64,000 nt of DNA, from positions 1 to 64,000 of the IMG/VR virus record IMGVR_UViG_3300024221_000009. The stretch is one strand, 5' to 3'. The position numbers were made by a program, and so were the translations under genes. The notes beneath the pieces were generated by a model, which saw only the letters and a program-made list of their open reading frames with translations, did not search any database and had not been told where the DNA came from. Shown piece by piece: positions 49,383-64,000 of the stretch. Source of the DNA: a virus. Numbering within the stretch: position 1 is the stretch's first letter; each line of letters starts with the position of its first letter.

Positions 49383-50045
49383 ATGATTTACGTAGCAGTA
49401 GACTTCTCTTTAAATTCACCTGGTATTTGTATTCACGATGATTCAAAGGATTCATATCACTTTGTGTCTTATATTAAAAGAGGACAAGGAACTAAAAAAG
49501 ATCAAAAGAAACAAGAAGACATTTCTCTTCTAAAAGACACCACATTAATTTATCAGCCCGACTGGGATAAAAGCGATAACTATTCAAGTGCTGAAATATC
49601 TAAAGTTAGAAGATATTCAAGAACCGCTCAAGACCTTATTGATATTATATTAAAGATAACTAAAACTAAAGACAATTATATTATTGGTTTTGAAGGAACT
49701 TCTTTTGGTTCTAAGATGGGAACTAATAATATTATTGATATGGCAGCAGGTGCAGCCCTTCTAAAAGCTGAAATGCTAAACCAATTAGATGTTAAAGCTC
49801 TAGAGACTGTAGCACCTTCAACTATTAAGAAACATGCTGGTAAAGGTAATATGAATAAAACAATGCTTTGGAAAGTTTTTATTGATAATAATATAAAAGA
49901 CCAGAAACTAGCATCCTCTAAACTATTTAATTATTGTGTTGATGAGATTGGAGAAGTTTCTAAGATCCCAAAACCTTTTGATGATTTGGTCGATGCCTTC
50001 TTCTTGAACAGCTTACTTCAAACGTTATTTAACCCTCAGGCTTAA
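49383..50045 (+). CDS. RuvC-like Holliday junction resolvase/nuclease
   Basis: VAVDFSLNSPG, GFEG, PSTIKKHAGKGN.NK, DDLVDAF. Confidence 0.75.
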   Translation: MIYVAVDFSLNSPGICIHDDSKDSYHFVSYIKRGQGTKKDQKKQEDISLLKDTTLIYQPDWDKSDNYSSAEISKVRRYSRTAQDLIDIILKITKTKDNYIIGFEGTSFGSKMGTNNIIDMAAGAALLKAEMLNQLDVKALETVAPSTIKKHAGKGNMNKTMLWKVFIDNNIKDQKLASSKLFNYCVDEIGEVSKIPKPFDDLVDAFFLNSLLQTLFNPQA

Positions 50046-50110
50046 AACTCTAAGCTTATATTACATATATGATAAAAAGTTTCAATAATAATAAATAAAA
50101 TAATAAAATA

Positions 50111-50296
50111 ATGGAAAAGAAAAAGATAGCTTCGGCACACTTATTAAAATTAAAAGAGATATTGTTTGATATGATATCACAAAACAGAATATCAGAAGCA
50201 GAAGCTCTAAATATTTTAAGAAAAGCAGGATTAATAAAGCTTCCAGAGGCTGATGGATGGATGGATGAAGAAGGATCCACATATAGAAAATTATAG
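50111..50296 (+). CDS. hypothetical protein (61 aa)
   Basis: ORF with long A-rich leader. Confidence 0.6.
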   Translation: MEKKKIASAHLLKLKEILFDMISQNRISEAEALNILRKAGLIKLPEADGWMDEEGSTYRKL

Positions 50297-50322
50297 AGAT
50301 ATATATTTTAAGATTATATTTT

Positions 50323-50350
50323 GAAACCTTTTAAAGATTCATTGTATAAT
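50323..50350 (+). promoter_or_regulatory. GAAAC-N17-TATAAT promoter (class II)
   Basis: GAAAC 50323-50327, TATAAT 50345-50350. Confidence 0.72.
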
Positions 50351-50363
50351 TAATGAAAGTTTT

Positions 50364-50436
50364 TTAAAGGTACCTTAACGAACAATCAAAGATTTAAAGA
50401 TTATTAACAAAATTAACGAAATTAAAGATTTAAAGA
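50364..50436 (+). repeat. about 8 copies of a TTAA(A/C)(G/A)A-like unit in the SSB 5' leader
   Basis: Units at 50364, 50375, 50386, 50394, 50404, 50413, 50422, 50430. Confidence 0.7.
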
Positions 50437-50437
50437 A

Positions 50438-51346
50438 ATGGCAGAATTTGACATTTTCAACTTAAGCGTAAGCGATGTTGAAACACACGACACACAAAGC
50501 ACTAAAACGGATGTACTATACAAGCCGAGTGCAGATCAAGGAAAAGATGGAACTTATAAAGCACTAGTACGCTTTGTTCCTAATCCAGCAAACCCAAGAA
50601 ATTCACTAGTTAAAAAATACGTACACTGGTTAACAGATGCATCAGGTAATGGTCGATTAATTGACTCACCTAGTTCTGTTGGCGAAAGTTGTCCAATTGC
50701 AGAAGCTTTTTTCAAACTAAGAAATAGCGATTCAGCAGTTGACCGTAAGATGAGTGAAAAATTAAAGAGACGTGAGCAATACTACTCTCTTATTAAAGTA
50801 ATTAAAGACCCTCAAAATCCAGATCTAGAAGGACAATACTTAGTGTATAAGTTTGGTTATAAGATTAAGGAAAAGATTGACGAGGAATTAAAGCCAGCTT
50901 TTGGTGAACCAACTCAAGTATTTGACCTTTTCGAAGGTAAAAACTTTGAATTGATTATAACAAGACAAGGTGAATATAACAATTACGATAAATCTAAATT
51001 CTCTGCAAGCACTTCAGCAATCACAGTAAATGGAGAAGCTGCTGAAAGAACAAAAGAGACAATGTCAGTTATTAAAACTGAATTAGATGCAGCACCATCA
51101 TTAGAGCCTTACGAGTATAAAGTATGGGATGGAGATGCAAGAGATTTCGTAAACGGAATTTTACGTCAATACTTAAATCCAGGAGGTTCAATTGATGCAG
51201 TGGTTTCAAAACCTAAAGCTGCGCCAAAGGCATCTAAGCCAGTTGAAGTATCTACACCAGTTGTAGAAACTACTTCAACAACAGAATCAACAAGTGCAGA
51301 TAGTAGTGATGATCTAGATTCTTTCTTGAATGACCTCGACATCTAA
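50438..51346 (+). CDS. single-stranded DNA-binding protein (T4 gp32-like)
   Basis: ALVRFVP, CPI, IKDPQNPDLEG...YKFG.KI, FDLFEG.NF.L, NYDKSKF; acidic tail DDLDSFLNDLDI. Confidence 0.88.
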   Translation: MAEFDIFNLSVSDVETHDTQSTKTDVLYKPSADQGKDGTYKALVRFVPNPANPRNSLVKKYVHWLTDASGNGRLIDSPSSVGESCPIAEAFFKLRNSDSAVDRKMSEKLKRREQYYSLIKVIKDPQNPDLEGQYLVYKFGYKIKEKIDEELKPAFGEPTQVFDLFEGKNFELIITRQGEYNNYDKSKFSASTSAITVNGEAAERTKETMSVIKTELDAAPSLEPYEYKVWDGDARDFVNGILRQYLNPGGSIDAVVSKPKAAPKASKPVEVSTPVVETTSTTESTSADSSDDLDSFLNDLDI

Positions 51347-52457
51347 GATAGACGAAACATTAAAGCAAAAAATTAGAAGCTTAGTAAAGCAAGTTGTAGT
51401 AAACGAGCACACTGACCCTAATAAAAGAATGCTTAAGGAAATGCCAGGCCGTTTGAGCCTGGCATGCCCTTATTGTGGAGACTCTACAACAGATACACAT
51501 AAGAAGAGAGGTAATATATATTGGGATAGTTTACAGTTTCATTGTTTTAACTGCTCTGCCCATGGAGATGTTTATTCTTTATTAAAAGATCATCACGTAG
51601 GATTCAAAGATAGAGAAGATTCTATTGCTATTATAGATTTCATACAGGAACATAGAATACAAGCAAACACTGTAGAAGTATTAGAACACGACATCTTTAA
51701 AAAGATATACGACTTAGCCCCTACTCGAGAAGAATTAAGTAAAACATTTGGATATAAAGAAATAGAAGTAGGAGATCCTGGTTATTTTTACTTAAGAGGG
51801 AGAATGTTATCTCATAAGCTTGAAAACTTTATGTATTCTCCTAAAGATAAAAGAATGGTTGTTCTTAATTTAGGCCCTAATAAAAAAGTTATAGGGTTTC
51901 AAACAAGAGCTCTTTCCAAATATAGAAACGCAAGATACCTAACGTATGATATTGAAAAAATATATCAAGAAATGAATAAAGATCTTGGAGTATCTGAAAC
52001 TGAATTAATAAGTCTTAAAAAAATATCAACACTCTTTGGTATTTTAAGAGTTGATTTACAAAGAACAGTCACTATGTTTGAAGGTCCTATTGACGCAATG
52101 TTTATGTCAAATAGTATTGGATTAGCAACAGCAGGTAGATCAACAGAAGAGTTTGATGAAATACCAACAATACGTTATATGTTTGATAACGACAAAACAG
52201 GTAAAGAGAAGATGATGCAAAAACTTCGAAGAGGTAAAGAAATATTTATGTGGGGTAAATTTCTTAATGATACCAAGCTAGATTTAAAATACGATAAATG
52301 GCTAGACGGAGTTAATAAAGAAAATAGAGATAAATATCCTAAAGAATTAGGTGATTTAAATGATCTAGTACGAGTAGCATACTATTTAAAAGACGATTGT
52401 CTTAAAAATCTGTCTGAATATTTTAGTAATTCTAAACTAGATGCATTTTACCTATGA
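51330..52457 (+). CDS. DNA primase (T4 gp61-like)
   Basis: Zn ribbon CPYCGDS...HCFNC; TOPRIM FEGPIDAMF and FDND. Confidence 0.88.
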   Translation: MTSTSKIDETLKQKIRSLVKQVVVNEHTDPNKRMLKEMPGRLSLACPYCGDSTTDTHKKRGNIYWDSLQFHCFNCSAHGDVYSLLKDHHVGFKDREDSIAIIDFIQEHRIQANTVEVLEHDIFKKIYDLAPTREELSKTFGYKEIEVGDPGYFYLRGRMLSHKLENFMYSPKDKRMVVLNLGPNKKVIGFQTRALSKYRNARYLTYDIEKIYQEMNKDLGVSETELISLKKISTLFGILRVDLQRTVTMFEGPIDAMFMSNSIGLATAGRSTEEFDEIPTIRYMFDNDKTGKEKMMQKLRRGKEIFMWGKFLNDTKLDLKYDKWLDGVNKENRDKYPKELGDLNDLVRVAYYLKDDCLKNLSEYFSNSKLDAFYL

Positions 52458-52675
52458 CAAATAAAGAAATTAACGAAATGATAGATCATGAGTTTGACGA
52501 ATTCGAACACGATCGAAACCGTAGAAAAAATATTAAAGCTTTTTTAAAACTTAAAAGCTCTATATATGATTTTACGGAAACTAAATTAACTATGACAGAT
52601 CCTAAGTTTAAGAAAAAACTTAGCACTTCTGTTTATATTAAACACAAAAATAAAAATAATAATCAACTGTTTTAA
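52454..52675 (+). CDS. hypothetical protein (73 aa)
   Basis: Coupled ORF in the replication module. Confidence 0.6.
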   Translation: MTNKEINEMIDHEFDEFEHDRNRRKNIKAFLKLKSSIYDFTETKLTMTDPKFKKKLSTSVYIKHKNKNNNQLF

Positions 52676-52686
52676 ACTAATAATCA

Positions 52687-53115
52687 ATGGCAGATTTAAA
52701 AGATAAAATACTTAAATTAGACGAATATCTAGGAAGACAAAGATTAGATTGGACTGATAAAATAAAAGAACTTACAGTTAATTTAAAGAAAGGTGTAAAC
52801 CTTGAAGAGGTTAGTTCGTTCTCATTGAGTTATCGACAAATATTAGTAGAACAGCTTGCATCTATGTCTAATAAGATGAGAGCACAAAAAGCAACAGTTG
52901 ATCAAAAGTATAAAACAAAGTGGATAGAATATTATCAATACGATTATAAACTAACCGACAAGCAACGAGAAAGATTTCTTGAAGCGGATTTAGCAGAAGA
53001 TAGACAGCTGCTAGATTTATTAGAAACACAGAAGAGCTTTATTGAAGCTTCTGTAAAAACTCTTGACAATATGGGCTTTGCAATAAAGAATCGCCTCGAT
53101 ATGACAAGAATATAA
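52687..53115 (+). CDS. uvsY: recombination mediator UvsY-like
   Basis: Helical 142-aa protein, IEYY...FLEAD...MGFAIKN, next to uvsW. Confidence 0.65.
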   Translation: MADLKDKILKLDEYLGRQRLDWTDKIKELTVNLKKGVNLEEVSSFSLSYRQILVEQLASMSNKMRAQKATVDQKYKTKWIEYYQYDYKLTDKQRERFLEADLAEDRQLLDLLETQKSFIEASVKTLDNMGFAIKNRLDMTRI

Positions 53116-53133
53116 AAAATAGTTTCATGAAAA

Positions 53134-54642
53134 TTGGTACTAACATTAACAGATGATAATCAATTTCTACGAATTGATGATGCTACTGAACTTGAGTTAG
53201 AACAGATTACAATCTCCCTTACAAAAAGAATTGAAAGTTGGAGATTTAATCCGTTAGTAAAACGAGGAGTGTGGGATGGTTATGTCTCTTATATTAAAGA
53301 TGACAAATGGATTCCAGCTGGACTATGGAGGCATGTTATACAAATTTGTAAAGATTATAAGATAGAGATTCAAATGAACGGAATAAAACGTTTAATTGAT
53401 CCAGATATTAACGCAGAAGCATTTGAAGAATGGGCTCTTAATTTCTTTAAAGGTGCTGAGATAACTCCAAGAGATTATCAAATAGAAACAGCATATAACA
53501 TACTTAAATTTAGAAAGTGTTTAGCGGAGTTGGCAACATCAGCTGGTAAAACTTTAATTAGTTTTATGACTGTTGCATATATGCTAGAAAAGAAAAAAGC
53601 TCAAAAAATATTATTTATAGTACCTAACGTATCTTTAGTTGTACAGGCCCATGAAGATTTTCATGAATATAATTACATGAATAAAGTTAATTTAAAGATT
53701 CAACAGATATATTCAGGTAAAAAAATTAAAAGTAATAAAAATATAATTATTGGTACATATCAATCTTTAGTAAAAAAAGATAAAGAATATTTTAGTCAAT
53801 TTGACGCTGTTTTAGTAGATGAAACTCACAAAGCAAAAAGCGCATCTATAAAAACAATATTACAAAAATGTACTAACGCAAAATATAAATTTGGTCTTTC
53901 AGGAACAATTCCTAAAGATGGATCTCTTGATAAATTAACTCTTATGAGCCAGACTGGTCCAGTTATTAGTGAAGTCAAAGCGGCTTTTCTACAAAAACAA
54001 GGACATATTGCAAAATGTTTGGTTAAAGTAATTCAAATGAACTATGCAACAGAAAATCAAAGACAAGCGTTTCAAGAGCTTGCGCAGAACAAATATGATA
54101 GAAAGGATGTTTTCCAACTTGAACAAAATTTTATTATTAATAACGAAGCACGTCTTGATTTTATCTCAAGCGTTATTTCCAGAGTACCCAGGAATAGCCT
54201 TGTCCTTTTTCACAGGATTGAACACGGTAAAAAATTATATGAAAAACTTAGACAAGAAAGCGATAAAAGAGTTTTTTATGTGGATGGCGGAACCAATACT
54301 GATATTAGAGAAGAATATAAAAAGAAAATGGAAGCCGGTGAAGAAGTTGTCATCGTTGCGTCCTATGGTACTTTCTCAACAGGGATCTCGATTAAAAAAA
54401 TACACAACATATTCTTTACGGAATCTTTTAAAAGTGAAGTGATTATCAGGCAATCAATAGGACGTGGTTTAAGGCAACATGAATCAAAGGACAAGGTTTT
54501 AATAATCGACTTTGTTGACGACATTAGAACGCAAGAGTGGGATAATTATCTATATAAACATGGTAAAGCTCGCCAGGCAATATATAAACAAGAAAAGTTT
54601 GATTATAATATTAAAATAGTCAATTTTGAAGGAGATATATAA
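53134..54642 (+). CDS. uvsW: UvsW-like SF2 DNA helicase (TTG start)
   Basis: PRDYQ, ATSAGKT, DETH, GLSGT, STGISIK, QSIGRGLR. Confidence 0.92.
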   Translation: MVLTLTDDNQFLRIDDATELELEQITISLTKRIESWRFNPLVKRGVWDGYVSYIKDDKWIPAGLWRHVIQICKDYKIEIQMNGIKRLIDPDINAEAFEEWALNFFKGAEITPRDYQIETAYNILKFRKCLAELATSAGKTLISFMTVAYMLEKKKAQKILFIVPNVSLVVQAHEDFHEYNYMNKVNLKIQQIYSGKKIKSNKNIIIGTYQSLVKKDKEYFSQFDAVLVDETHKAKSASIKTILQKCTNAKYKFGLSGTIPKDGSLDKLTLMSQTGPVISEVKAAFLQKQGHIAKCLVKVIQMNYATENQRQAFQELAQNKYDRKDVFQLEQNFIINNEARLDFISSVISRVPRNSLVLFHRIEHGKKLYEKLRQESDKRVFYVDGGTNTDIREEYKKKMEAGEEVVIVASYGTFSTGISIKKIHNIFFTESFKSEVIIRQSIGRGLRQHESKDKVLIIDFVDDIRTQEWDNYLYKHGKARQAIYKQEKFDYNIKIVNFEGDI

Positions 54643-54677: not shown

Positions 54678-57098
54678 ATGGCAAAAATGAATAAAATCAG
54701 TTCTTTTCAAACTTTTTCTGAAGTAAGAGAGGCTGAAAATGCTGATAAACTACAACAAGAAAATCAAGCTAAAAGATTAGAGCTAACAGAAAGAATAGGT
54801 AAAATATTAGATGAAATGGAAATAACATCTTTTGAAGACTTAGACGAAGAAGTTAGAGATCAATTAGTAGAAAAAACGTTCGGATTAGTTAAAGAAGGAG
54901 ATAAAACAAAAGTTTCTAAAAAAGAAATTAAAATGCATCTGGATATGTTCCAAGCAGGAGACATCGATGGTAATGATTTATCACAAGCTATTTCTGCAAT
55001 TATATTCGGAGAAGTAAAAGGACCGGGTATGGAATCTAAAGATTCTGAACAGGTTTCAGAAGCAACTGTTGTTATGGACGCAATAAACCCTGATGATAAA
55101 GATTTCTTAAAATTCTTAAAAAAGAATAAAGTTAAAGTAATTGACACTGTAAAATCAGGCCCAAGTGGACATCCTGAAATTACAATGCAAGGAAAAAGAA
55201 AAGATCTTGAAGCAGTATTAGCTGACGGTGAATTAGGATGGGATGATCCTGGTTTAGCAGAATTTATTGAAGAATCAATAAACATTTCAGAAGCAGTAAT
55301 AGTTACTGGTAGAAGAGACGCTAAAAAAGTTTTAACAGCATACACTAAATTTTTCCAAAAATATCCAGCATTAGCTGATAGGAGATTTGCAGGTTTACAT
55401 TTAGGAGCAATCAAATCCTTAATGGTTTCTGCATTAACAGATGCTAATTTTCATAGAGAATCAGCAGCGTGCGGAAAGTCTATTAAAGGAGCAAAGCTTC
55501 AACCTGTTTTTATTAAGCCAATGGAATTAAATAAAACAGAAATTAAAATACCTGTTGGTAAAGTAGCATCTATTTTAGATGATAATGCATCTCTTATTTC
55601 TGGTGCAGCCGGCTTTTCTGGTTTAGGTATTGCTGAAGGAACAGCATTATACTTAGATTCTCTTAAATATGTTAAAGAAGCAGAAGCAGTTATTGCATGT
55701 TTTAATTCTACGTTTGAAAGTGAAGTTACTGACGTAACAGAAGGTAATGCATTTTTAGGAGCTAGAGCTAAGGCTATTGAAGAAGATGCTGAAGAATTTG
55801 AATTTAACGGTAAAAAATATCCAGTAATTAAAGAATCAGAAGAAGTTACTGAATCAGCCGAACCAAAGTGTAATAATAAAAAAGGACATTTATATAAGCA
55901 AATTGATAAGGACGGAACGGTAGAATGCGTGCACTGTGGTCTAAGAAATTCATTAAGCGAATCAGAGGTTAATGAAGCTAAATCTTTTAAAAATACTGAA
56001 GATTTTGAAGCATTTTTAAAGGAAATCGATGCTATGCCAGAAAGAGCAGTTAGAAAGATAATGGGTAAAGAATATATCGATACTCCTGGTTTTTATGAAG
56101 ATGAAAAGGATGATTATGATGATGTAATTGACTTCATGATTTCAAACATGGGTGCAGATATTTATCACCAATTAGAACAGTGGTGGGAAAACAATGTTCA
56201 AGAATCAGCAGTTACTGAAGCTAAATTTGTAAAAGATTTTGATAAAGATGTTTTAGATGCTGAAACCAAAGCAGATATAACAACTTACTACCCTTCTGCT
56301 AAATTCTTTATAGGTAAATCAACCCACTTCTTCGGAGAATTAGATAAAAATTTATTTTTTAAAGCATATTATAAAGATTATGTAAAGAAGGCTGGTGGTA
56401 AAATCGATGGTGATTTTAAAATTGTAATGATATATTCTGAAAAAGGTAGAAATTTTGTACCTTTATTTACTAGAGAAGTTACTGAATCAGTGGTTACTGA
56501 AGCTAAAATTAATTCTGACGAAGAGTTTAAAGAATATGCTACAACTGTTTTACAAAAAGCGTTTGGTGAAGATTATGACGAAGCAAAAGCAAACGAAGTT
56601 ATTGATGGTATTTTAGCAAAAGTTGACGGAGATTACGGCGCTGCTGTAGGAATGTTAACATCTTCATTAGGAGAATCAGTAGTTACTGAAAAAACATATA
56701 ATAAAAAGTCTTTAATGAAAGCAATGAAAGCCGATGATGGTATGATACAATTAGGCAATGGTCAAGAATATGTTATCTACGCTTACGGTAATGGTAATGA
56801 TGATAACGACAATATGTGGGGAGATAAATCAATCTTTGCGTTAGACCAAGACGGCGAAGAGCATGAAATTGAATATTCTGATATTGTAAGTTATAATGAA
56901 GCTAACGCTGATGGAACTATTTCAGATGATGAAGACGAAAAAAGAGAAGAACTTTTAAATAGAGTTAAAGAACAAATGGAAGAGCTATTAGCATCTGCTG
57001 AATTTGATGCTAAAGAAATTGGTGGTTCTTTTAGATCTCCTGGTATTATGTTTGATATTAGAAAACAACTTGATAAGCAAGTTAAAAAGTTTAAATAA
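54678..57098 (+). CDS. modular polyprotein 1, putative protease-processed head cargo
   Basis: About 11 unrelated segments separated by ES-x-V-[TNS]-E-A linkers; late motif at 54634. Confidence 0.7.
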   Translation: MAKMNKISSFQTFSEVREAENADKLQQENQAKRLELTERIGKILDEMEITSFEDLDEEVRDQLVEKTFGLVKEGDKTKVSKKEIKMHLDMFQAGDIDGNDLSQAISAIIFGEVKGPGMESKDSEQVSEATVVMDAINPDDKDFLKFLKKNKVKVIDTVKSGPSGHPEITMQGKRKDLEAVLADGELGWDDPGLAEFIEESINISEAVIVTGRRDAKKVLTAYTKFFQKYPALADRRFAGLHLGAIKSLMVSALTDANFHRESAACGKSIKGAKLQPVFIKPMELNKTEIKIPVGKVASILDDNASLISGAAGFSGLGIAEGTALYLDSLKYVKEAEAVIACFNSTFESEVTDVTEGNAFLGARAKAIEEDAEEFEFNGKKYPVIKESEEVTESAEPKCNNKKGHLYKQIDKDGTVECVHCGLRNSLSESEVNEAKSFKNTEDFEAFLKEIDAMPERAVRKIMGKEYIDTPGFYEDEKDDYDDVIDFMISNMGADIYHQLEQWWENNVQESAVTEAKFVKDFDKDVLDAETKADITTYYPSAKFFIGKSTHFFGELDKNLFFKAYYKDYVKKAGGKIDGDFKIVMIYSEKGRNFVPLFTREVTESVVTEAKINSDEEFKEYATTVLQKAFGEDYDEAKANEVIDGILAKVDGDYGAAVGMLTSSLGESVVTEKTYNKKSLMKAMKADDGMIQLGNGQEYVIYAYGNGNDDNDNMWGDKSIFALDQDGEEHEIEYSDIVSYNEANADGTISDDEDEKREELLNRVKEQMEELLASAEFDAKEIGGSFRSPGIMFDIRKQLDKQVKKFK
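55833..56693 (+). repeat. dispersed in-frame linker repeat, consensus GAATCAGNRGTTAMTGAAGCTAAA
   Basis: Copies at 55833, 55959, 56202, 56484, 56673; weaker copies at 55032, 55272, 55716; also 61633. Confidence 0.85.
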
Positions 57099-57103
57099 AA
57101 ATA

Positions 57104-57144
57104 GAAAAAAAGATGACCTGGATTTTTCCGGGTCAAATCTTTTT
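57104..57144. terminator. intrinsic terminator, possibly bidirectional
   Basis: TGACCTGGA-tttt-TCCGGGTCA stem flanked by an A-tract and a T-tract. Confidence 0.7.
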
Positions 57145-57158
57145 ATTATATTAGTAGT

Positions 57159-57461
57159 ATGAAGAAAGCAAAATTATATGAAGAGTTTATCAACGAAGAA
57201 ATCTATTTAACATATAGTGAAATCGTAGGTTATCAATTTGATAAGTTTTTAGAATCATATTTTAAACTAAATAAAGATAACAAAACAGTTTACGATAAAA
57301 AAGAAGATTTTACGTATGGTTTTAGAAAAGGATCTAAAACTGCACATTGGAAATATGATCACGATAATTTCGAATTACACCACAGTGAAAAAGAATTTCA
57401 TGTCTTAGGTCTTATAAATTTTTATAAACAAGCATCAAAGGGACATCCCTGGTCTAAATAA
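57159..57461 (+). CDS. small protein with capsid-targeting-like N-terminus
   Basis: MKKAKLYEEFINE start. Confidence 0.65.
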   Translation: MKKAKLYEEFINEEIYLTYSEIVGYQFDKFLESYFKLNKDNKTVYDKKEDFTYGFRKGSKTAHWKYDHDNFELHHSEKEFHVLGLINFYKQASKGHPWSK

Positions 57462-57471
57462 AACATACGCA

Positions 57472-58755
57472 ATGAAAATATTATCATTTAAAGATTTCTT
57501 AATAGAAAGAGAAAATAAAGAAGTATTAGACTCTAAATTAATTTTAGAAGGTGGGGCAGCAGGTCACATGTCACATCCATTTGATGAAAAAGATTTGACA
57601 TTTGCAGATTTTAAAAAGATAGTAACTGCTGGTCTTCAAGGTGAATTAAACTTTGAGGAAGAAGCAACTGAAAAAACGGATGGACAAAATGTATTTGCAA
57701 CAGTTCAAGATGGAGAAGTAAAATTTGCCAGAAATAAAACTGAATTAGCAAATCCAATGGACTTGGCTACTTTTAAGAATAAGTTTGAAGGACATCCAAG
57801 TAAATTAGTACAAGATACTTTTCAATTTGCTGCAGAAGATTTAGCAAACTCATTAAATAAATTATCCCCTAAAGATTTAGAAGTTTTTGATAATGGTAAA
57901 AACTGGATGAACATGGAGTTAATTTACTCTAAGAATCCAAACGTTATCTACTATGACCGCGATGTTATTCAATTTCATGGTATAAAGAAAACTGATGGTG
58001 AAGGTAATACTATTGGAGAAGATAACAAACCAGCAAGATCAATTGCGAAAGCAATGCAAGATCTTAAAATTAATGTTGGTAAAACATTTACAGTTATCCC
58101 ACCTCAAATTATTAAATTAGGTAAAGATTTAGAATTTGATAAAAATCAATCTAAATTTATAAAACAAATAGAAGCGTTAAGAGATCGTTATAAATTAACA
58201 GACGCTGATGAAGTTTCTAGATATCATGAAATGTGGTGGAGAGAAACAATAGATACAAATTTCCCTGATTTACAACAAGACTATAAAGAAGGTTTATTAT
58301 TAAGATGGGCTTATGGAAATAAGAAGTCTTTAAATATGAGAAGTCTTGCAAAGGAAATAGGAAAAGATGAAGCAGCTTCTGTTAAGAAATTCGACAAAGA
58401 AGATGTTAAAAAGAAATATAAAGAAAACATTAGACCTTTTGAAGATTTATTCTTAGAACTAGGATCTATAATTCTTAAAAATGCTTCTAATTTTGTAGCA
58501 GCAAATCCAGACAAGGAAATGCAAAGATTACATAATCAAATTAGAAGTGAATCAGAAAAAATTAAAAAAGGCGGAGGAGAAGCTCAAATTGCAAAAGTAG
58601 AAGCTGAACTTGCTAGGTTAGAAAGAATTGGTGGTGTAGAATCTATTATACCAACTGAAGGAATAGTCTTTGTATATAAAGGAAAAACAATGAAATTAAC
58701 AGGTACGTTTGCAGCCATTAATCAATTAATGGGAATTATAAAGTACGGAAGATAA
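57472..58755 (+). CDS. ATP-dependent ligase-like nucleotidyltransferase with capsid-targeting-like leader
   Basis: MKILSFKDFLIE..LILE|GGAAGHM; motif I TEKTDG, motif IV EGIVF, motif V MKL. Confidence 0.6.
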   Translation: MKILSFKDFLIERENKEVLDSKLILEGGAAGHMSHPFDEKDLTFADFKKIVTAGLQGELNFEEEATEKTDGQNVFATVQDGEVKFARNKTELANPMDLATFKNKFEGHPSKLVQDTFQFAAEDLANSLNKLSPKDLEVFDNGKNWMNMELIYSKNPNVIYYDRDVIQFHGIKKTDGEGNTIGEDNKPARSIAKAMQDLKINVGKTFTVIPPQIIKLGKDLEFDKNQSKFIKQIEALRDRYKLTDADEVSRYHEMWWRETIDTNFPDLQQDYKEGLLLRWAYGNKKSLNMRSLAKEIGKDEAASVKKFDKEDVKKKYKENIRPFEDLFLELGSIILKNASNFVAANPDKEMQRLHNQIRSESEKIKKGGGEAQIAKVEAELARLERIGGVESIIPTEGIVFVYKGKTMKLTGTFAAINQLMGIIKYGR

Positions 58756-58765
58756 ATAATATAAT

Positions 58766-60649
58766 ATGGCACTTAAAAAATTAAGAGAACATTTTCAAGA
58801 AACTAATATTAATGAGTTTCATAGATTGTTAAAAAATAGAGTAATGGTTGTTGAAAAAATTTCAGCACCATCTTTTTATGTTAGAAGAAATGAAGAAAAA
58901 TTTGAATTTTATAAATCTTCAAAATCTAAACCTCTAACAATAATAGATAGAACTATTATGTCTCTTTACGAAGTTGCCATTAAACATATACAAAGTTTAA
59001 ATCCTAAAAGTAAAAAACAATTACCAGATAATTATAGATTTGGTTTTGAATATTTACCAGAAGAAAAGGTTTCTGAATATGTATACACTAAAATACCTAA
59101 AAATACTTTAATATTAACGCACATCCACCAACTAGGTGAAAACGGAAAAGTAAAAAAGACAATTATAGATCCTTTAATTATAAAAAAATGGGCTACCGTA
59201 TTAGAAGTACAACAACAAGAAGTTATATTTGACGGAACTTTAGATTCAACTCAAAAAGAAAAGCTTATTAATTTATTAGAAATGAATGATAAAGCTTTTT
59301 CTGAGGCATTTGACTACGATATAGAAACGGATAAATTAGTTTCTTTCACAAAAGAAATATACAAGATATTTAATATTAATTCAACATCAAGCGTTCTTCA
59401 AGAGGATTTAGAATCTGAAATAGATGGTTTAGTTTTAAATTTTGCTGAAGGTAAAAAAATACAATCTTATAAATTAGAAGATTTTATTAGAAAACCTTTA
59501 AATGAAATTAGAGAAGGTTCTCATACATATCAAATAGCAATCGCAGATATATTAGAATATTTTGTTAATTATAATTTTTCAGAAACAAATTTAGTTGAAG
59601 AAAATGCAGAAAAAAGATATATAGAATTAATCTCAGCAGCATTTAACAAATACGTTAATAAAAACGCAACAAGATATATTGGAGTTAATTTCCAAAATGC
59701 AGAATTTTCTTCTTCTAAATTATTTAATTTAAATACAACATTCATTAAAAACGAAAAAACATTAACACATGTTTCAAATGAAGTTTTATCAAGTTTATTT
59801 AAAATAACATTAGGTACTTTTAGAAAGCATAAAACGAAAGCAACAGATATATTAAATGATGATATGATATCTCAATTAAATAATATAGTTGATAAAATCA
59901 ATGATGTTGTTTTTCTAGAAAAAGCAGACGAAAATTCTATATATAATTATAAGAATTTTATGATGCATAACAATATAAAAAGCGAAGTAACTTTAAATGA
60001 AGCGCTAACTGTTAAGCACGCTGAGCAAGGTAAAGAATTAGTAAATATGTTCGTTGGTAGATTTCAGCCATTCACATTAGGACACGCCAAAGTTTTAGAA
60101 GCAATTCACAAACAAAATGGATATCCAGTTATTGTATTTTTAATTAAAGCAAAATCTAAAAAGAAAGGTGACGAATTTAGAAAACCTTATTCTGAAGATT
60201 TACAAATTAAAATGTTTAAACAAGTTCAAAAGCAATATAAATTCTTAAAAGAAATTATAGTTCTTGATAGAGGTGCAATTGATTATATGTTTAACGAATT
60301 AAGACCTAAATACGAGCCAGTACTTTGGGGAACAGGATCAGACAGAATGACTTCTTATGGATATCAAGTAAATAATGATTCTTATAGAGATCAATTAAAT
60401 GTAAGATCCGATTTTGGTTTATTTGAAATACCAAGAACAGATAATAATATTTCAGCAACACAAGTAAGAAACGCAATGTTAGACGGTGATGAATCTTTAT
60501 TTAAAAAGACTACCCCAAAGGCAATTCATAAAATGTATGATGTTTTAAAGTCTGAACTTGAAAAATCTATGGAGATGGTTGCAGCTTCTAAAGTTGTATC
60601 AGAATCCGTTATGACATTTCAAGAATATATGAATAAATTAAAATCATAA
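58766..60649 (+). CDS. degenerate ligase-like domain fused to a HIGH-family (cytidylyl/adenylyl) nucleotidyltransferase
   Basis: VVEKIS and IDGLVL..YKL in the N-terminal part; VGRFQPFTLGH, GSDR and ISATQVR in the C-terminal part. Confidence 0.7.
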   Translation: MALKKLREHFQETNINEFHRLLKNRVMVVEKISAPSFYVRRNEEKFEFYKSSKSKPLTIIDRTIMSLYEVAIKHIQSLNPKSKKQLPDNYRFGFEYLPEEKVSEYVYTKIPKNTLILTHIHQLGENGKVKKTIIDPLIIKKWATVLEVQQQEVIFDGTLDSTQKEKLINLLEMNDKAFSEAFDYDIETDKLVSFTKEIYKIFNINSTSSVLQEDLESEIDGLVLNFAEGKKIQSYKLEDFIRKPLNEIREGSHTYQIAIADILEYFVNYNFSETNLVEENAEKRYIELISAAFNKYVNKNATRYIGVNFQNAEFSSSKLFNLNTTFIKNEKTLTHVSNEVLSSLFKITLGTFRKHKTKATDILNDDMISQLNNIVDKINDVVFLEKADENSIYNYKNFMMHNNIKSEVTLNEALTVKHAEQGKELVNMFVGRFQPFTLGHAKVLEAIHKQNGYPVIVFLIKAKSKKKGDEFRKPYSEDLQIKMFKQVQKQYKFLKEIIVLDRGAIDYMFNELRPKYEPVLWGTGSDRMTSYGYQVNNDSYRDQLNVRSDFGLFEIPRTDNNISATQVRNAMLDGDESLFKKTTPKAIHKMYDVLKSELEKSMEMVAASKVVSESVMTFQEYMNKLKS

Positions 60650-60696
60650 ATAAATAAAGAATATATAATCTTATAATATAAAACAAAATAAAAGTC

Positions 60697-62907
60697 ATGG
60701 ATAAATCACACTTTAATCAAGATGATAGAGTAGATGAAGGGAAAATAACAATAAAAAGACGTTATACTGAAAACTACCCTGCAAAAACTGTTGGTAAATC
60801 AGCAAAAATAAGAAACAAAATGTTGGAAGCAATTTCGGACGGGGCTATTACCCAAGAAGAATTTGATTCTATCATAGCAGAATTATCATCTGATTCAAAA
60901 AGATGGTTATCTCGTAATTCTAGGTTATTTAATATTACAGAGGCTGGAATAACATTAACAGGGTTAGGTAGAAAGATTTTATCTCAAATTACAGTAAATG
61001 AAAAAACAGAAAAGAATCCAGAAATATGGGTTCCTGGAAAATTTGATAAAGAAGTTTCTAAATTATCAGCTGATGAATTAACACTAGACAATATAAAAAA
61101 ATTATCAAAAAAACATAGAGTATTTTTACAAGATGCAATAGCGTATGTTGAATATAGCTTCGATGTTGATATTGTAGAAAATAAAGAAAATAATATGAAA
61201 ACAAAATTAGTATTTGAATCTTTCGGAGATTTTGTAAACTCATTAGATAAAAATAATGAAGAATTAAACGAAGGCACTAGAGGCCAATTCGGAATGATTG
61301 ATAAAAAAGGAAATATACAGTCAGTATATATGCATTATGATTCATATCCTGAAAACATTCTACCATTAATAAAAAGAGGTTACGGAAACTCTAAAAAAGT
61401 ACAAGCAGTTATTGATAGAGGAGATACTTCTGGATTAGATAAAACAGTTGATACTATGAATTTCTATGAAGATGGTAGAAAGCCAACTTCAGGTAAAAAA
61501 GCAGACATTGCACGTTATATTAAAAAAGCAGCTGATGATGGTGGAGCAGAATACATCTATTTATATGATGAGTCTGATAAAACTTGGTACATGGTTGATG
61601 TTTATGGAGACATGCAATTAGTTCCTGCATTTGAATCAGTAATTAATGAAGCTGTAAACGCAACTGCTTATATTAAAGCTGGTAAATTAGGTTATAATGA
61701 TCAATTCTTAGCAAAGAGATCTTTATCATGGACATTATCAGTTGACTTAGGTCTAAAAGCATCTGATGAATTTGTCGGACCATGGTTAGGATTCGATTAT
61801 GTATCATTATATGCTATTGGTAAAAAAGGAGGAACAATTATTGATGATGCCTTAACTGGTAAATATACTTATGACGAATTAAAAGCAGCAGCAGCTGATT
61901 TTTTAGGTATTAAAGAATCAGAAGAAGCTTTAGGTGAATCAGAAGATACTGAACTTAATGAAGCATTTAAATCTTCTAAATTAAGAAATTTAGTAAATAT
62001 GGATCAATCACAACGTGATGGATATGGTAAAGCAAGAAATTTAGCAGCTGCTATTTATGGATTATCAAAACTAAAATTAGATAAAATTGAAGATTCTTCT
62101 TTAATTGATGTAGATCCTAAAGAAGCTTATAAAAAATATCAAAACAATAGAGACTATTTAGTTTTTTATATAGTAGACAACGAAAAAGAAAATGAATACA
62201 GCAAAGGTTCATTTACATCATTAATAAAACCAGGTATTTTAGCTTTAACCAGAGGAAAAGACTTTTTATCAGTTCAATATGTTCAATCTAGAAATAGATC
62301 AGTTGATCGTACTTTAGGAAAAGATGATGGTAATGCAATTGGTGGTAATAAAAGATATTCTGGATATGATGCATCGGGTATTTCTTCAGTTGTAAGAGCT
62401 TCTAAATTAGCAGACAGAGCAATTGTAATTGATATTGTTAATGGTGGCGAAACTTCAAAAGAAGAAAGAAACGAAAGAGCAAGAGCAAAAGAAGGAGCTT
62501 TAGCTTTTAAATCTGACGCAGACTTTAAGAAAGCTAACAAGGCAAGATACCAAGAAATCTTATCAACTAAAGCTTCTAAGTTACCTCTTGATAAAATGGT
62601 TAATGACGCTATTGATGATTTAGGAAATCAAATTAAAGATGGTCTTAAGGCTAATAAAAAGACAGAATACGGAGAGCTTAAAATTGGAGAAAATTCTAAA
62701 GGTAGAGCAGTTAAAATCACAGATGCTTCAAACCACATGGGTAGAATCTTATCTGATTATCAAAGATATGTTGAATACATGGTAAAAGCAGAAGAAGAAA
62801 AAGGTAGAGATTATTCATCAGGATATTACGAAAAGAATTCAAAACAATACGCTAAAGATATTAAAGATGCAGTTAAAAAAATACCTACGTTCGATTACGC
62901 TTGGTAA
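60697..62907 (+). CDS. modular polyprotein 2
   Basis: Segments delimited by VDE|G, VNE|K, LNE|G, ESVINE|A, ES..ELNE|A; late motif at 60659. Confidence 0.65.
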   Translation: MDKSHFNQDDRVDEGKITIKRRYTENYPAKTVGKSAKIRNKMLEAISDGAITQEEFDSIIAELSSDSKRWLSRNSRLFNITEAGITLTGLGRKILSQITVNEKTEKNPEIWVPGKFDKEVSKLSADELTLDNIKKLSKKHRVFLQDAIAYVEYSFDVDIVENKENNMKTKLVFESFGDFVNSLDKNNEELNEGTRGQFGMIDKKGNIQSVYMHYDSYPENILPLIKRGYGNSKKVQAVIDRGDTSGLDKTVDTMNFYEDGRKPTSGKKADIARYIKKAADDGGAEYIYLYDESDKTWYMVDVYGDMQLVPAFESVINEAVNATAYIKAGKLGYNDQFLAKRSLSWTLSVDLGLKASDEFVGPWLGFDYVSLYAIGKKGGTIIDDALTGKYTYDELKAAAADFLGIKESEEALGESEDTELNEAFKSSKLRNLVNMDQSQRDGYGKARNLAAAIYGLSKLKLDKIEDSSLIDVDPKEAYKKYQNNRDYLVFYIVDNEKENEYSKGSFTSLIKPGILALTRGKDFLSVQYVQSRNRSVDRTLGKDDGNAIGGNKRYSGYDASGISSVVRASKLADRAIVIDIVNGGETSKEERNERARAKEGALAFKSDADFKKANKARYQEILSTKASKLPLDKMVNDAIDDLGNQIKDGLKANKKTEYGELKIGENSKGRAVKITDASNHMGRILSDYQRYVEYMVKAEEEKGRDYSSGYYEKNSKQYAKDIKDAVKKIPTFDYAW

Positions 62908-62908
62908 T

Positions 62909-64000
62909 ATGAAAACAATGTATACATCATTTAGCGAATTTTCAAGAGGGATTAAAGAAAACATTTCACCAGAAAGTATTGGAGGAATGGGAGATGTTAT
63001 ATTACCGAATGGTGATGAACTAGGTTCTGGCGATATTCCTTCTGAAGAAGATGATGAAAATAAAGAAAAAATAAATACAAAATCTATGGATTTTAATAGT
63101 TTTATAAACAAATCAACGGTTAGTAAATTAGTCATTGAGAAATCAGCAACAGATACTCTAGCGGATGATGTTTCTGGAGAATTATATATTGCAAAACTTA
63201 AAGGCAAGTCAGCTACTATTAAAGCAACGACTACGACAAAGACATGGGATGATGGAGTCCCGGTATTAAAGTATTTAGCAAGAGGTAAAAGTAAATCAAT
63301 GTCTTTTGATTTATATCAAAGACCTTTTCAAGTGGTACACGACTATGCACATGGCTGGTGGTACTTCACAGATGGTGGAAAATGGTACGGATTGCACGTA
63401 AGCGACGGTTATAGTGAAGCTGCTGATTTACCATTCGATATGCAAATTCCAGAAAACAAAATACAAGAAGGTGTTATGTCTGACATTCACCAAATGATAG
63501 GTAATCATAAAACTTTTGATTCATTTCAAAAAGAATTCTTTAAAGAATATGGAGATAATAAAGCTATGAAAAAAACCAAAGACTTTTTAGAATGGCTAGA
63601 AGCTTTATATTCAGATTCACAATATGCAGTATCTGAGGCAAGACCAGGTACTTACACGTACCAAATGGATAGTGAAGGAAATACTAGAAAAGTATTACCG
63701 CCATATTATGGTAATTCAGAACTTCATGATAAATCAAAAGAACTATTTAAAAAACCATGGAAAAAGCTTAGTGATAAACAACAAGATGAAGTTTTAGCAG
63801 CCTTTGAAATAGTTGAAGCAAGATCAATTGCAAAAATACAAAAAGAATATGGAAGTGTAGTAACTGATATGAAAGATCTTGTTAAAGATTATGTAAAAAT
63901 GTCAGATGATAATTCTGAAAAAGCTAAGACAAGACAATTACTTATAGATTTAACTTCTAAGAAAAAATCATTAATGTCAGAATTAGATGACGCAGTAGGT
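62909..64000 (+). CDS. modular polyprotein 3, 3'-truncated by the window (not in ORF track)
   Basis: ATG 62909, open for 364 codons to the window end; MKTMYTSFSEF..IKE; IQE|G, VSE|A, IVE|A. Confidence 0.75.
   Translation, partial: MKTMYTSFSEFSRGIKENISPESIGGMGDVILPNGDELGSGDIPSEEDDENKEKINTKSMDFNSFINKSTVSKLVIEKSATDTLADDVSGELYIAKLKGKSATIKATTTTKTWDDGVPVLKYLARGKSKSMSFDLYQRPFQVVHDYAHGWWYFTDGGKWYGLHVSDGYSEAADLPFDMQIPENKIQEGVMSDIHQMIGNHKTFDSFQKEFFKEYGDNKAMKKTKDFLEWLEALYSDSQYAVSEARPGTYTYQMDSEGNTRKVLPPYYGNSELHDKSKELFKKPWKKLSDKQQDEVLAAFEIVEARSIAKIQKEYGSVVTDMKDLVKDYVKMSDDNSEKAKTRQLLIDLTSKKKSLMSELDDAVG

Follow-up and report, generated by a model that had tools for sequence, protein, structure and literature searches.

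Why should the linkers between unrelated protein modules be spelled almost identically in DNA? The question arises from a 64,000-nucleotide window (the whole stretch of DNA analysed here), which belongs to a T4-like marine phage that has not been cultured. The linker peptide E-S-x-V/I-T/N-E, followed by A or K, separates unrelated modules in genes A and B, and it is written with a near-identical word of 18–24 nt whose consensus is GAA TCA GTA GTT ACT GAA GCT AAA. A sequence-only reading of the window had listed six such strings and proposed them as recombination joints for module shuffling. All six lie where it placed them, in frame within genes A and B, and their shared 18-base pattern is far above chance: four positions (55959, 56202, 56484 and 56673) match the degenerate 18-mer GAATCANNNGTTANTGAA exactly, against an expectation of 0.00 in 100 dinucleotide-preserving shuffles. 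A looser pattern also picks up 61633 in gene B, and the linker at 55833 is a variant longer by one codon.

The linkers and the genes that carry them

The features used below are as follows; arrows mark candidate cuts.

49383-50045, +: RuvC-like gene, upstream of gene A
50438-51346, +: gp32-like SSB gene, upstream of gene A
51330-52457, +: primase gene, upstream of gene A
52687-53115, +: UvsY-like gene, upstream of gene A
53134-54642, +: UvsW gene, upstream of gene A
54678-57098, +: gene A, ORF for a predicted 806-aa polyprotein; leader, constant module, then variable cassette region
54888-54896, +: V-K-E↓G, N-terminal candidate cut site of gene A, non-canonical spelling
55053-55061, +: V-S-E↓A, N-terminal candidate cut site of gene A, non-canonical spelling
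55272-55292, +: E-S-I-N-I-S-E↓A, N-terminal candidate cut site of gene A, non-canonical spelling
55725-55742, +: V-T-D-V-T-E↓G, N-terminal candidate cut site of gene A, non-canonical spelling
55740-55835, +: invariant 31-aa peptide G-N-A-F-L...P-V-I-K-E, between two candidate cut sites
55833-55856, +: Linker 1, E-S-E-E-V-T-E↓S-A (GAATCAGAAGAAGTTACTGAATCA)
55959-55982, +: Linker 2, E-S-E-V-N-E↓A-K, following a Zn-ribbon module
56202-56225, +: Linker 3, E-S-A-V-T-E↓A-K
56475-56507, +: Linker 4, compound site E-V-T-E↓S-V-V-T-E↓A-K; the copy listed in the sequence-only reading begins at 56484
56673-56693, +: Linker 5, E-S-V-V-T-E↓K
56889-56900, +: degenerate boundary S-Y-N-E↓A, preceding the C-terminal helical module of gene A
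60697-62907, +: gene B, ORF for a second predicted polyprotein of 736 aa; PHROG 1987 at aa 193-302
61273-61632, +: 'GTRGQFG' module of gene B, matching phrog_1987, a stand-alone family of 128 positions, over positions 2-117
61633-61653, +: gene B linker, E-S-V-I-N-E↓A
62867-64000, +: gene C, third polyprotein-like gene, extending to 64390 in the genome
64028 (genome position beyond the window): gene C linker GAATCAGTAAATGAA

Gene A matched no Pfam or PHROG family, and its more than 1000 homologs are all metagenomic. Its AF2 model (pTM 0.30) has folded blocks parted by pLDDT dips below 50 at the linkers. Dips also occur near the N-terminal sites (residues 70-78, 112-126, 189-205 and 348-353) and at the 56889-56900 boundary (residues 738-749), where relatives have a full E-S-x-V-x-E linker; candidate cut sites coincide with 9 of the 11 low-confidence segments. 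Linker 1 is the border between the constant part of the gene and its cassette region. The four N-terminal sites are peptides of the same kind written in other codons (AGT, ACA and GCA, for example), without the linker word. Only the 31-aa peptide was found by blastn in all relatives.

The linkers also resemble protease sites. T4 gp21 cleaves after L/I-x-E, and cleavage was first seen at a Glu-Ala bond (PMC9026906). A Peptidase_S77 (gp21) match above the cut-off (PF03420, E 1.3e-13) lies at 89717-90091 of G000, in a gene that comes after those for the portal and a small acidic protein. Every linker carries a hydrophobic-x-Glu motif (V/I-T/N-E) in which P3 is mostly Val instead of Leu, and by sequence the linkers fit the rule of this phage-encoded, T4-type prohead protease. 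The major capsid protein of relatives begins with the same motif (M-A-N-L-I-N-E↓A-E), and the 'GTRGQFG' module matches a free-standing phage family from position 2 onward. We infer that a gp21-family protease cuts after the last Glu of the linker and releases the modules, which are probably head-internal cargo. Gene A homologs share a conserved leader, M-x-x-x-x-K-I-S-S-F-x-x-F-S-E, and neighbouring genes begin M-K-K-x-K-L-Y-E-E-F-I-N-E; these may be akin to the capsid targeting sequence (CTS) of T4.

The T4 internal proteins IPI, IPII, IPIII and Alt carry a capsid targeting sequence and are processed by gp21 (PMC9026906, PMC12373910). They share with the present modules a T4-type head protease with cleavage (predicted here) after hydrophobic-x-Glu, and both are small, non-essential proteins, cargo in T4 and putative cargo here, whose repertoire is highly variable among relatives. 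However, each T4 cargo has its own gene and N-terminal targeting peptide, whereas here many modules of putative cargo stand in one reading frame behind one leader.

Relatives differ at the linkers

Module content and order vary widely among relatives. The 173 proteins with the constant module display 103 architectures, one module family is found next to 20 different modules on its left and 17 on its right, and permutations of module order occur. The 'GTRGQFG' module, which is in gene B here, lies inside the gene A homolog in most relatives (P0009, P0010, P0012 and L003-L020). Differences between close relatives end in linker motifs. Relative L073 shows 99% identity on the downstream side of linker 55833 but no relationship on the upstream side; when it is compared with L067 and the window, the crossover falls inside the shared G.ATCAG of that linker, with 99.1% identity on one side and 90.6% on the other. 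Similarity to L001 stops at 55978 (Linker 2) and picks up again at 56207 (Linker 3), similarity to L002 picks up again at 56496 (Linker 4) with a 6-nt overlap, ACTGAA, and at Linker 5 the HSPs of many relatives stop at aa 665-671.

The same pattern appears in bulk. When 501 DNA-similarity breakpoints were placed against the regex-defined linkers, 33% were no more than 12 nt away from one and 50% no more than 24 nt, compared to 7% and 13% under the null, for which the highest of 200 values at 24 nt was 17.6%. At 90 mosaic junctions the overlaps are mostly shorter than 30 nt (one is 42-47), and most of the overlap sequences inspected are linker words. Contigs from four independent seawater metagenome runs, from four studies, have branch points or loose ends at 55835, 55963-55969, 56189-56223, 55740, 54899 and 56896. 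At Linker 1, runs X4 and X6 both branch at 55835, and run X20 has a joint from 55845 to 56210, which leads from Linker 1 to Linker 3. Loose ends lie at 55963, 55965 and 55969 in Linker 2, at 56189, 56193, 56210, 56222 and 56223 around Linker 3, at 54899 and 55740 by the N-terminal sites of gene A, and at 56896 in X20, with an alternative linker upstream. Similarity breakpoints, mosaic junctions and assembly branch points agree, bearing out the expectation of the sequence-only reading that modules are gained and lost with breakpoints in the linkers. We conclude that the linkers are the sites where relatives differ by module gain, loss, replacement, reordering and gene-to-gene transfer.

Surviving junctions would also sit at linkers under selection on random recombinants, and apparent microhomology is expected for any junction inside a shared motif. 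Illegitimate or microhomology recombination might therefore occur anywhere, with survival only of joints in flexible, cleavable linkers; uniform spelling would then reflect common descent of linkers with their modules plus mild codon and context preference, and DNA homology would have no role. We regard this account as a serious contender, although on balance doubtful. Compound or stretched linkers (E-V-T-E-S-V-V-T-E; an acidic filler in L001) speak for it and indicate that exchange is not always in register, but the canonical six-residue form predominates.

Spelling of the linker word

Codon choice bears on the same alternative. The six listed linkers, which were chosen by DNA likeness, all use TCA for the first Ser, although TCT is commoner genome-wide (0.38 versus 0.32 for TCA). 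The sequence-only reading had pointed this out; across the family the preference is only moderate (58-63%). Counting one representative per non-orthologous linker context (n=43), we found GTA in 17/17, GTT in 31/33, ACT in 14/14, GCT in 17/19 and TCA in 27/43, where usage in the same genes is 0.42, 0.52, 0.50, 0.43 and 0.36, respectively. The signal is strong at codons 3, 4, 5 and 7, where GTA, GTT, ACT and GCT, respectively, are preferred. Dipeptide context moves codon choice in the observed direction, which speaks for the selective account, but explains only part of the preference. Genome-wide, Thr-Glu dipeptides use ACT in just 54%. That 43 non-orthologous contexts share GTA-GTT-ACT at 94-100% argues against selection alone, and because the modules between them are unrelated, the linkers did not arise by tandem duplication. 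Silent codons also agree better among linkers of the same gene than in shuffled sets (0.824 versus 0.760 ± 0.016, P<0.001), and the canonical spelling is followed slightly more closely where neighbours vary than where they are fixed (0.83 versus 0.76, p=0.034).

Other results favor the selective account. Where a linker keeps both neighbours, its silent sites are no better conserved than those of the flanks, with linker/flank differences of 0.61/0.63, 0.72/0.71 and 0.85/0.83 in three divergence bins. In place, such linkers drift like their flanks, so the word is under no detectable extra purifying selection. No allelic recombination hotspot was seen across the linker of an adjacent module pair, as distances correlate as well across it (r 0.81) as within the modules (0.67 and 0.82). 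Invariant columns of the constant module likewise keep column-specific codons (major-codon fractions 0.39-0.90), and shared descent inflates some of the counts because family members are not saturated at silent sites. The synonymous-site conservation expected from the sequence-only reading thus holds between non-orthologous linkers, which exceed codon usage and dipeptide context, and fails for linkers in place.

Could the DNA identity simply be a by-product of a conserved peptide and AT-rich codon bias, with no shuffling at linkers? The genome has 30.5% GC and strong bias (GAA 0.85, AAA 0.81), and the 31-aa invariant peptide illustrates that full peptide conservation alone gives ~85-90% DNA identity. 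However, codons 3-5 exceed codon and dipeptide-context expectations about two-fold, architectures vary massively and breakpoints lie in linkers. Contradicted by the breakpoint, codon and architecture results, this reading has next to no chance of being right. Because content and order vary, breakpoints fall at linkers and identity goes beyond codon usage, none of the refuting outcomes named in the sequence-only reading was observed, and its proposal is borne out in part.

Silent positions might instead be fixed for a reason in RNA or translation, such as off-frame stops or decoding speed at domain boundaries, recombination being incidental. Through exactly the GTA, ACT and GCT choices, the canonical word places TAG in frame +1 and both TGA and TAA in frame +2. 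Yet TCA and GTT create no stop, and where codon 5 is Asn there is no AAT preference (AAT:AAC 31:17 versus a background of 0.60), though AAT-GAA would give the same TGA. The genome-wide use of ACT before Glu and the silent drift of orthologous linkers also count against this explanation, which we consider very improbable.

A dedicated sequence-specific enzyme, either a homing-type nuclease or a site-specific recombinase, could target the word and start exchange. The canonical word contains a 6+6 dyad, TCAGTA-GT-TACTGA, and uses a single spelling though several equally palindromic ones are possible. But four of the six pairs follow automatically from coding S-V-V-T-E, the full dyad is present in only 9 of 43 linkers, wobble changes that would compensate one another are absent, and linkers in place are free to drift at silent sites. 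No candidate enzyme came to light; the contig covers about 28% of the genome. A site-specific step is not indicated, and we find such an enzyme extremely improbable; the phrase 'cassette array without an integrase' in the sequence-only reading serves as an analogy only.

A proposed route of exchange and its parallels

The best explanation, in our judgement, combines polyproteins that have protease-site linkers with homology-guided in-frame crossover; its mechanism is unproven, and we give it slightly better than even prospects. Genes A, B and C would be polyproteins that string unrelated small modules together by cleavable linkers. Because these are spelled with one near-identical 18–24-nt word, general phage recombination could pair non-allelic linkers, whether these belong to a single genome or to two relatives infecting the same cell, and produce in-frame crossovers, although the homology is short (18–24 nt with 1–4 mismatches) and the N-terminal candidate sites of gene A lack the word. 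Every exchange would copy linker DNA and keep the word uniform by concerted evolution, while selection would retain only in-frame, cleavable junctions, and a dedicated recombinase would not be required. The sequence-only reading correctly identified the UvsW, UvsY and gp32 genes, but a specific role for them at linkers is unsupported and adjacency is uninformative; we found no evidence that makes the recombination and replication genes at 49383-54642 more than context. Given that the word is shared and that module changes among relatives fall exactly at it, the linker probably has a dual purpose, as head-protease cut site and in-frame crossover point.

The closest parallel in DNA is with the promoter-early stem-loop (PeSL) cassettes of T4-type phages (Arbiol et al. 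2010, PMC2839356; Comeau et al. 2014, PMC4122927), which their authors explicitly compare with integrons and with Botstein's linker sequences. In both cases exchangeable units are flanked by short conserved DNA motifs, and where close relatives differ by an insertion, deletion or replacement, the difference ends in a motif. The mechanism proposed for both is general recombination by the phage itself, acting on small homologous patches. PeSLs are, however, intergenic elements of ~100 bp with a promoter and terminator, whereas the 18–24-nt word lies in frame inside ORFs and is therefore only analogous to a PeSL; it also has to preserve the frame, and it encodes what is probably a protease site. 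Inverse PCR has demonstrated recombination products for PeSLs, while the junctions described here are those of natural sequence variants. Integrons, too, hold arrays of exchangeable units bounded by a repeated site, but they need an integrase and structured attC sites and exchange entire genes as cassettes. In the present arrays the units are protein modules joined in frame, and the word has only its peptide-dictated 6+6 dyad, with no attC-like structure indicated.

Two protein systems are also similar. The glycine-rich motifs of the T-even tail-fibre adhesin gp38 (Tetart 1996/1998; Trojet et al. 2011, PMC3157838) are intragenic, separate hypervariable segments, and have chimera-forming exchanges within or near them. 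They are the structural core of one folded domain with a fixed segment order, in contrast to the present linkers, which are modelled as disordered spacers between autonomous modules free in number and order. The polyvalent proteins of phages and conjugative elements (Iyer et al. 2017, PMC5512222) are likewise long and built of many domains in widely differing combinations, and their proposed fate is to enter with the DNA and be processed into units. Unlike gene A, which is without a Pfam or PHROG domain, they have recognisable enzymatic domains, and cutting is attributed to a metallopeptidase domain of their own; neither a repeated linker word nor a joint at the DNA level has been described for them. 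We found no published description of such a DNA-fixed polyprotein linker in the literature.

Joints of domain shuffling are rarely visible and are usually inferred long afterwards. Here they are short, recognisable and numerous, and shuffling is caught in the act, as near-identical relatives and co-occurring seawater variants differ exactly at linkers. Tentatively, and with prospects a little short of even, we propose that an 18–24-nt dual-use device allows large marine phages to shuffle a shared stock of more than 100 small cargo modules, both inside genes and genomes and from one to another, its word kept uniform by concerted evolution, as a protein-level counterpart of gene-cassette systems without a dedicated recombinase. 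This would extend the 'linker sequences' idea of modular phage evolution from intergenic DNA to coding sequence, and would offer a concrete design rule, open to testing, by which exchangeable cargo could be loaded into T4-type capsids. The modules, if delivered from the capsid, may be anti-defence tools like the T4 internal proteins. If the DNA word guides exchange, abundant ocean phages would have a simple means of recombining the proteins that they deliver from the capsid without breaking the reading frame or the processing sites.

Linker copies and the gene A family

The sequence-only reading reported six linker strings, starting at 55833, 55959, 56202, 56484 and 56673 in gene A and at 61633 in gene B, and all of them are present in the window. 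Each is in frame and encodes E-S-x-V/I-T/N-E. The pattern GAATCANNNGTTANTGAA has four matches in the window and none in 100 dinucleotide-preserving shuffles; a slightly looser pattern also picks up 61633, in the next large gene, and the copy at 55833 is a variant that is one codon longer. As claimed, Ser is spelled TCA in six of six linkers even though TCT is commoner across the 91-kb genome (0.38 versus 0.32), these six copies having been picked for their likeness to one another. The N-terminal third of gene A holds four more candidate cut sites with a similar peptide and a different spelling. Elsewhere, a 1210-aa ORF of the presumed structural region (32484-36116) contains, at 33036-33092, two sequences 39 nt apart that match the linker pattern with 1-2 mismatches.

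The window comes from a 91,386-bp viral contig of 30.5% GC, with an estimated completeness of about 28% (CheckV) and genes almost all on one strand. Its relevant features are as follows.

5' of gene A: RuvC-like resolvase, gp32-like SSB, primase, UvsY-like protein and UvsW
54678-57098, + strand: gene A, 806 aa
57472-60649, between genes A and B: two enzyme-like genes, one with a 427-aa product without a family, the other with a 627-aa product whose residues 428-569 form a cytidylyltransferase-like domain (PF01467, E 1.6e-10)
60697-62907: gene B, the second polyprotein gene
Same contig, outside the window: portal protein, small acidic protein and T4-type prohead protease (Peptidase_S77, E 1.3e-13)

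Gene A matches no Pfam or PHROG family, and both the gene and its constant module have zero tblastn or megablast matches among 50,697 deposited phage genome records, in which the closest UvsW (55% identity) belongs to a 462-kb uncultured phage. The gene A family was found in metagenomes only, where it has more than 1000 relatives, marine in every case with a stated source. Gene A itself recurs near-unchanged (88-97% of sampled 31-mers) in seawater and marine viral metagenomes from 16 studies spanning 2017-2025, so its architecture is stable and widespread despite the plasticity of the family.

One segment hardly varies. At 55740-55835, with a cut-site motif at either side, gene A encodes the 31-aa peptide G-N-A-F-L-x-A-R-A-K-A-I-E-E-D-A-E-E-F-E-F-N-G-K-K-x-P-V-I-K-E, which is invariant even in relatives whose constant module is just 44-51% identical to that of the window, and it is the sole part of gene A detected by blastn in all loci. 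Some relatives have a second, diverged copy (G-N-A-F-G-A-A-R-A-E-A-I...). The peptide proved unsuitable as a neutral reference for silent sites because some of its own codons, AAC and GCT among them, are fixed.

Module shuffling and its breakpoints

Module content and order vary among relatives, as the idea of module shuffling anticipated. We split 210 proteins wherever a linker-like motif occurred, and on clustering the pieces fell into 112 module families; the clusters are crude, families 0 and 1 each lumping several modules, so the resulting 103 distinct architectures among 173 proteins with the constant module are an approximate count. The high diversity of architectures is independent of clustering details. 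Members of one module family have 20 different neighbors on the left and 17 on the right, counts which, like all others taken here over related sequences, do not represent independent events. Even the nearest homologs of gene A differ from the window in module content and order, among them the closest relatives P0002, P0004 and P0005, which are 82-67% identical and arrange their modules otherwise: homolog P0005 carries the 'SDEEFKEY' module ahead of the 'FVKDFD' module, the opposite of the window order, and the 'GTRGQFG' module, which lies in gene B in the window, is inside the gene A homolog in P0009, P0010 and P0012. Which paralogous gene houses a module also differs from phage to phage (loci L004, L018 and L020). 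A gene at another locus (L052, 5416-8088) has two modules separated by at least five tandem copies of an acidic unit of 12 residues, T-E-E-V-E-E-T-E-E-V-E-E; the array looks like expanded linker-like motifs, as out-of-register exchange would give.

We then asked where related sequences part company. From 126 IMG/VR and metagenome loci we kept 76 non-redundant ones, the window's stretch included, in which we counted 90 polyprotein-like ORFs and, by regex, 363 linkers, and called a breakpoint wherever a blastn match of at least 85% identity ended and the next 60 nt were less than 50% identical. These ORFs hold 501 such breakpoints. Measured from the last Glu codon of a linker, 33% are no more than 12 nt away and 50% no more than 24 nt, compared with 7% and 13% for random positions (highest of 200 trials, 10% and 17.6%). 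Many of the off-linker breakpoints lie at cut sites outside the regex, such as P-V-I-K-E|G or E-D-E-V-T-E|A. In 90 cases a gene combines two other sequences as a mosaic, and the stretch common to both 'parents' is mostly shorter than 30 nt (42-47 in one case); the overlaps that we inspected are mostly linker words, for example GAAGTTACTGAAG or GTAAATGAAGCTGAA.

Among individual junctions, locus L073 is the clearest case. From 55835 through the end of gene A it matches the window at 99.1% identity, and 5' of this it has another leader, 90.6% identical to L067; comparing all three places the crossover within the G.ATCAG that they share where linker 55833 begins. L001 has a short acidic filler in place of module 55983-56201, with both ends in linkers, and L002 lacks 55854-56495, its two matches overlapping by ACTGAA. 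We also placed Logan assembled contigs from four seawater runs, each from a different study, on gene A. Loose contig ends occur at 55835 in two runs, where the depths of the L073-type and window-type sequences are similar (193 and 207), and at 55963-55969, 56189-56223, 55740, 54899 and 56896; in one contig, 55845 runs straight into 56210. Because a linker word is too short to hold one of the assembly's 31-mers, the loose ends reflect real branching between co-occurring variants.

The linker probably, by a modest preference, does two jobs, as a protease site and as an in-frame homology patch for joining non-allelic linkers. The phage's general recombination system would join such linkers at the short in-frame homology, and selection would then purge recombinants that are out of frame or uncleavable. 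The earlier proposal named the adjacent UvsW, UvsY-like and gp32-like genes as the machinery; these are ordinary replication and recombination genes for a T4-like phage, and their proximity does not speak for a special link. The main rival, a real but lesser possibility in our judgment, holds that recombination is random and that junctions sit at linkers solely through the selection step. The breakpoint data fit both readings alike, and the sole argument for homology guidance over selection is the shared spelling of the linkers.

Spelling of the linker word

Sorted by the sequence on either side, 114 strict linkers fall into 43 contexts, each of which has one representative below.

Codon choice in the linker word, as codon used, count among representatives and same-gene usage
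Codon 2 (Ser): TCA, 27/43, usage 0.36
Codon 3 (Val): GTA, 17/17, usage 0.42
Codon 4 (Val): GTT, 31/33, usage 0.52
Codon 5 (Thr): ACT, 14/14, usage 0.50
Codon 7 (Ala): GCT, 17/19, usage 0.43

Matched by position, codon identity is 0.86, 0.79 and 0.73 at codons 3, 4 and 5, where 0.44, 0.43 and 0.47 would be expected. Pure codon bias without shuffling is a poor fit. Dipeptide context shifts the expectation slightly (ACT rises to 0.54 for Thr before Glu, for instance), but general codon preference cannot give the pattern, since the two Val codons differ synonymously in a fixed order. A limit on the claim is that the silent sites of the family are not saturated: column-specific codons are kept in invariant columns of the constant module.

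The conservation at the DNA level that had been read from the window holds beyond codon usage among non-orthologous linkers, but orthologous linkers that keep their place show no excess: linkers keeping both neighbors have no extra silent-site conservation relative to the flanking modules at three divergence levels. Nor did distance correlation for one pair of adjacent modules reveal a recombination hotspot: pairwise distances taken across the linker correlate as well as those within a module. The in-place silent drift and this null result argue that the word is not under strong purifying selection and that allelic recombination is not concentrated there. Silent codons are more alike among linkers within one gene (0.824) than when shuffled among genes (0.760 +/- 0.016), and the canonical score is slightly higher with variable neighbors (0.83) than with fixed ones (0.76; p=0.034). 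It is more likely that the uniform word is kept across unrelated contexts by repeated copying through non-allelic exchange; a mild position-specific codon preference may also act on it.

Two other accounts of the spelling, a dedicated enzyme recognizing the partly palindromic word and an RNA-level cause, are poor fits. Canonical linkers, including the copy at 55962-55976, do contain the dyad TCAGTA-GT-TACTGA, four of whose six pairs follow from coding S-V-V-T-E. We rejected the palindrome as a selected feature because compensatory changes are absent. The canonical word also yields stops in both other frames (TAG, TGA and TAA); these were rejected as the reason for codon choice because Asn, Ser and Val-4 do not fit.

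The head protease and known recombination linkers

T4 gp21, the prohead protease, cleaves after L/I-x-E, and a Glu-Ala bond was the first example (PMC9026906); the linkers here read V/I-T/N-E, in most cases with Ala next. Two related contigs (L129, 1243-2700; L128, 1453-2940, minus strand) encode a major capsid protein that starts M-A-N-L-I-N-E-A-E-I-R, a sequence that suggests a propeptide of just seven residues with the linker motif at its end. The gene after the capsid gene begins with the targeting-like M-K-L-S-K-K-L-M-L-F-E-E-F-T-E. The protease gene of the window's contig (L022 1468-3168, or 89684-91386 of the whole contig) is fused to a long acidic scaffold-like tail, and its ORF runs off the contig; at its end this tail repeats E-E-T-E-E-V-E / E-E-T-K-A-V-E many times in near-tandem arrangement, and these repeats in turn amount to strings of V-x-E motifs.

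An AlphaFold2 model of the gene A product (mean pLDDT 70, pTM 0.30) has confident folded blocks between low-pLDDT segments. Those with pLDDT below 50 (residues 70-78, 112-126, 189-205, 348-353, 384-424, 508-514, 602-607, 666-685 and 738-749) match the positions of candidate cut sites. The gene B module at 61273-61632 aligns to positions 2-117 of a phage family of stand-alone proteins that is 128 positions long, so a cut after L-N-E would restore the N-terminus of that protein. Sequence and model support, without proving, that gene A encodes a bead-on-a-string polyprotein processed by the head protease.

Three genes on the contig start with M-K-K-A-K-L-Y-E-E-F-I-N-E (57159-57200), M-K-I-L-S-F-K-D-F-L-I-E (57472-57510) and M-K-K-V-R-L-Y-E-D-F-I-A-E (89273-89320 of the whole contig), which we take to resemble the T4 capsid targeting sequence, with a cut-site motif at the end. 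Judging from these starts, the whole of 54678-64390 may be a head-cargo locus.

Comparable systems are known. T4 internal proteins are cleaved by gp21 and variable among relatives (PMC9026906, PMC12373910), and the polyvalent proteins (PMC5512222) are variable cargo proteins, too, of great length and subject to processing. Short conserved sequences are established as recombination linkers in T4-type phages for the intergenic PeSL cassettes (PMC2839356), and conserved internal motifs act likewise in tail-fibre adhesin genes (PMC3157838). Unlike the PeSL joints, which are intergenic, the joint here lies within a reading frame and encodes a probable cut site, and the linkers bound autonomous modules that change in number, order and host gene. 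A full-text literature search returned no description of such polyproteins or of an E-S-x-V/I-T/N-E linker. The idea of recombination at linkers is thus already known in T4-type phages, and what differs here is the combination of an in-frame joint, a probable cut site and autonomous, movable modules.
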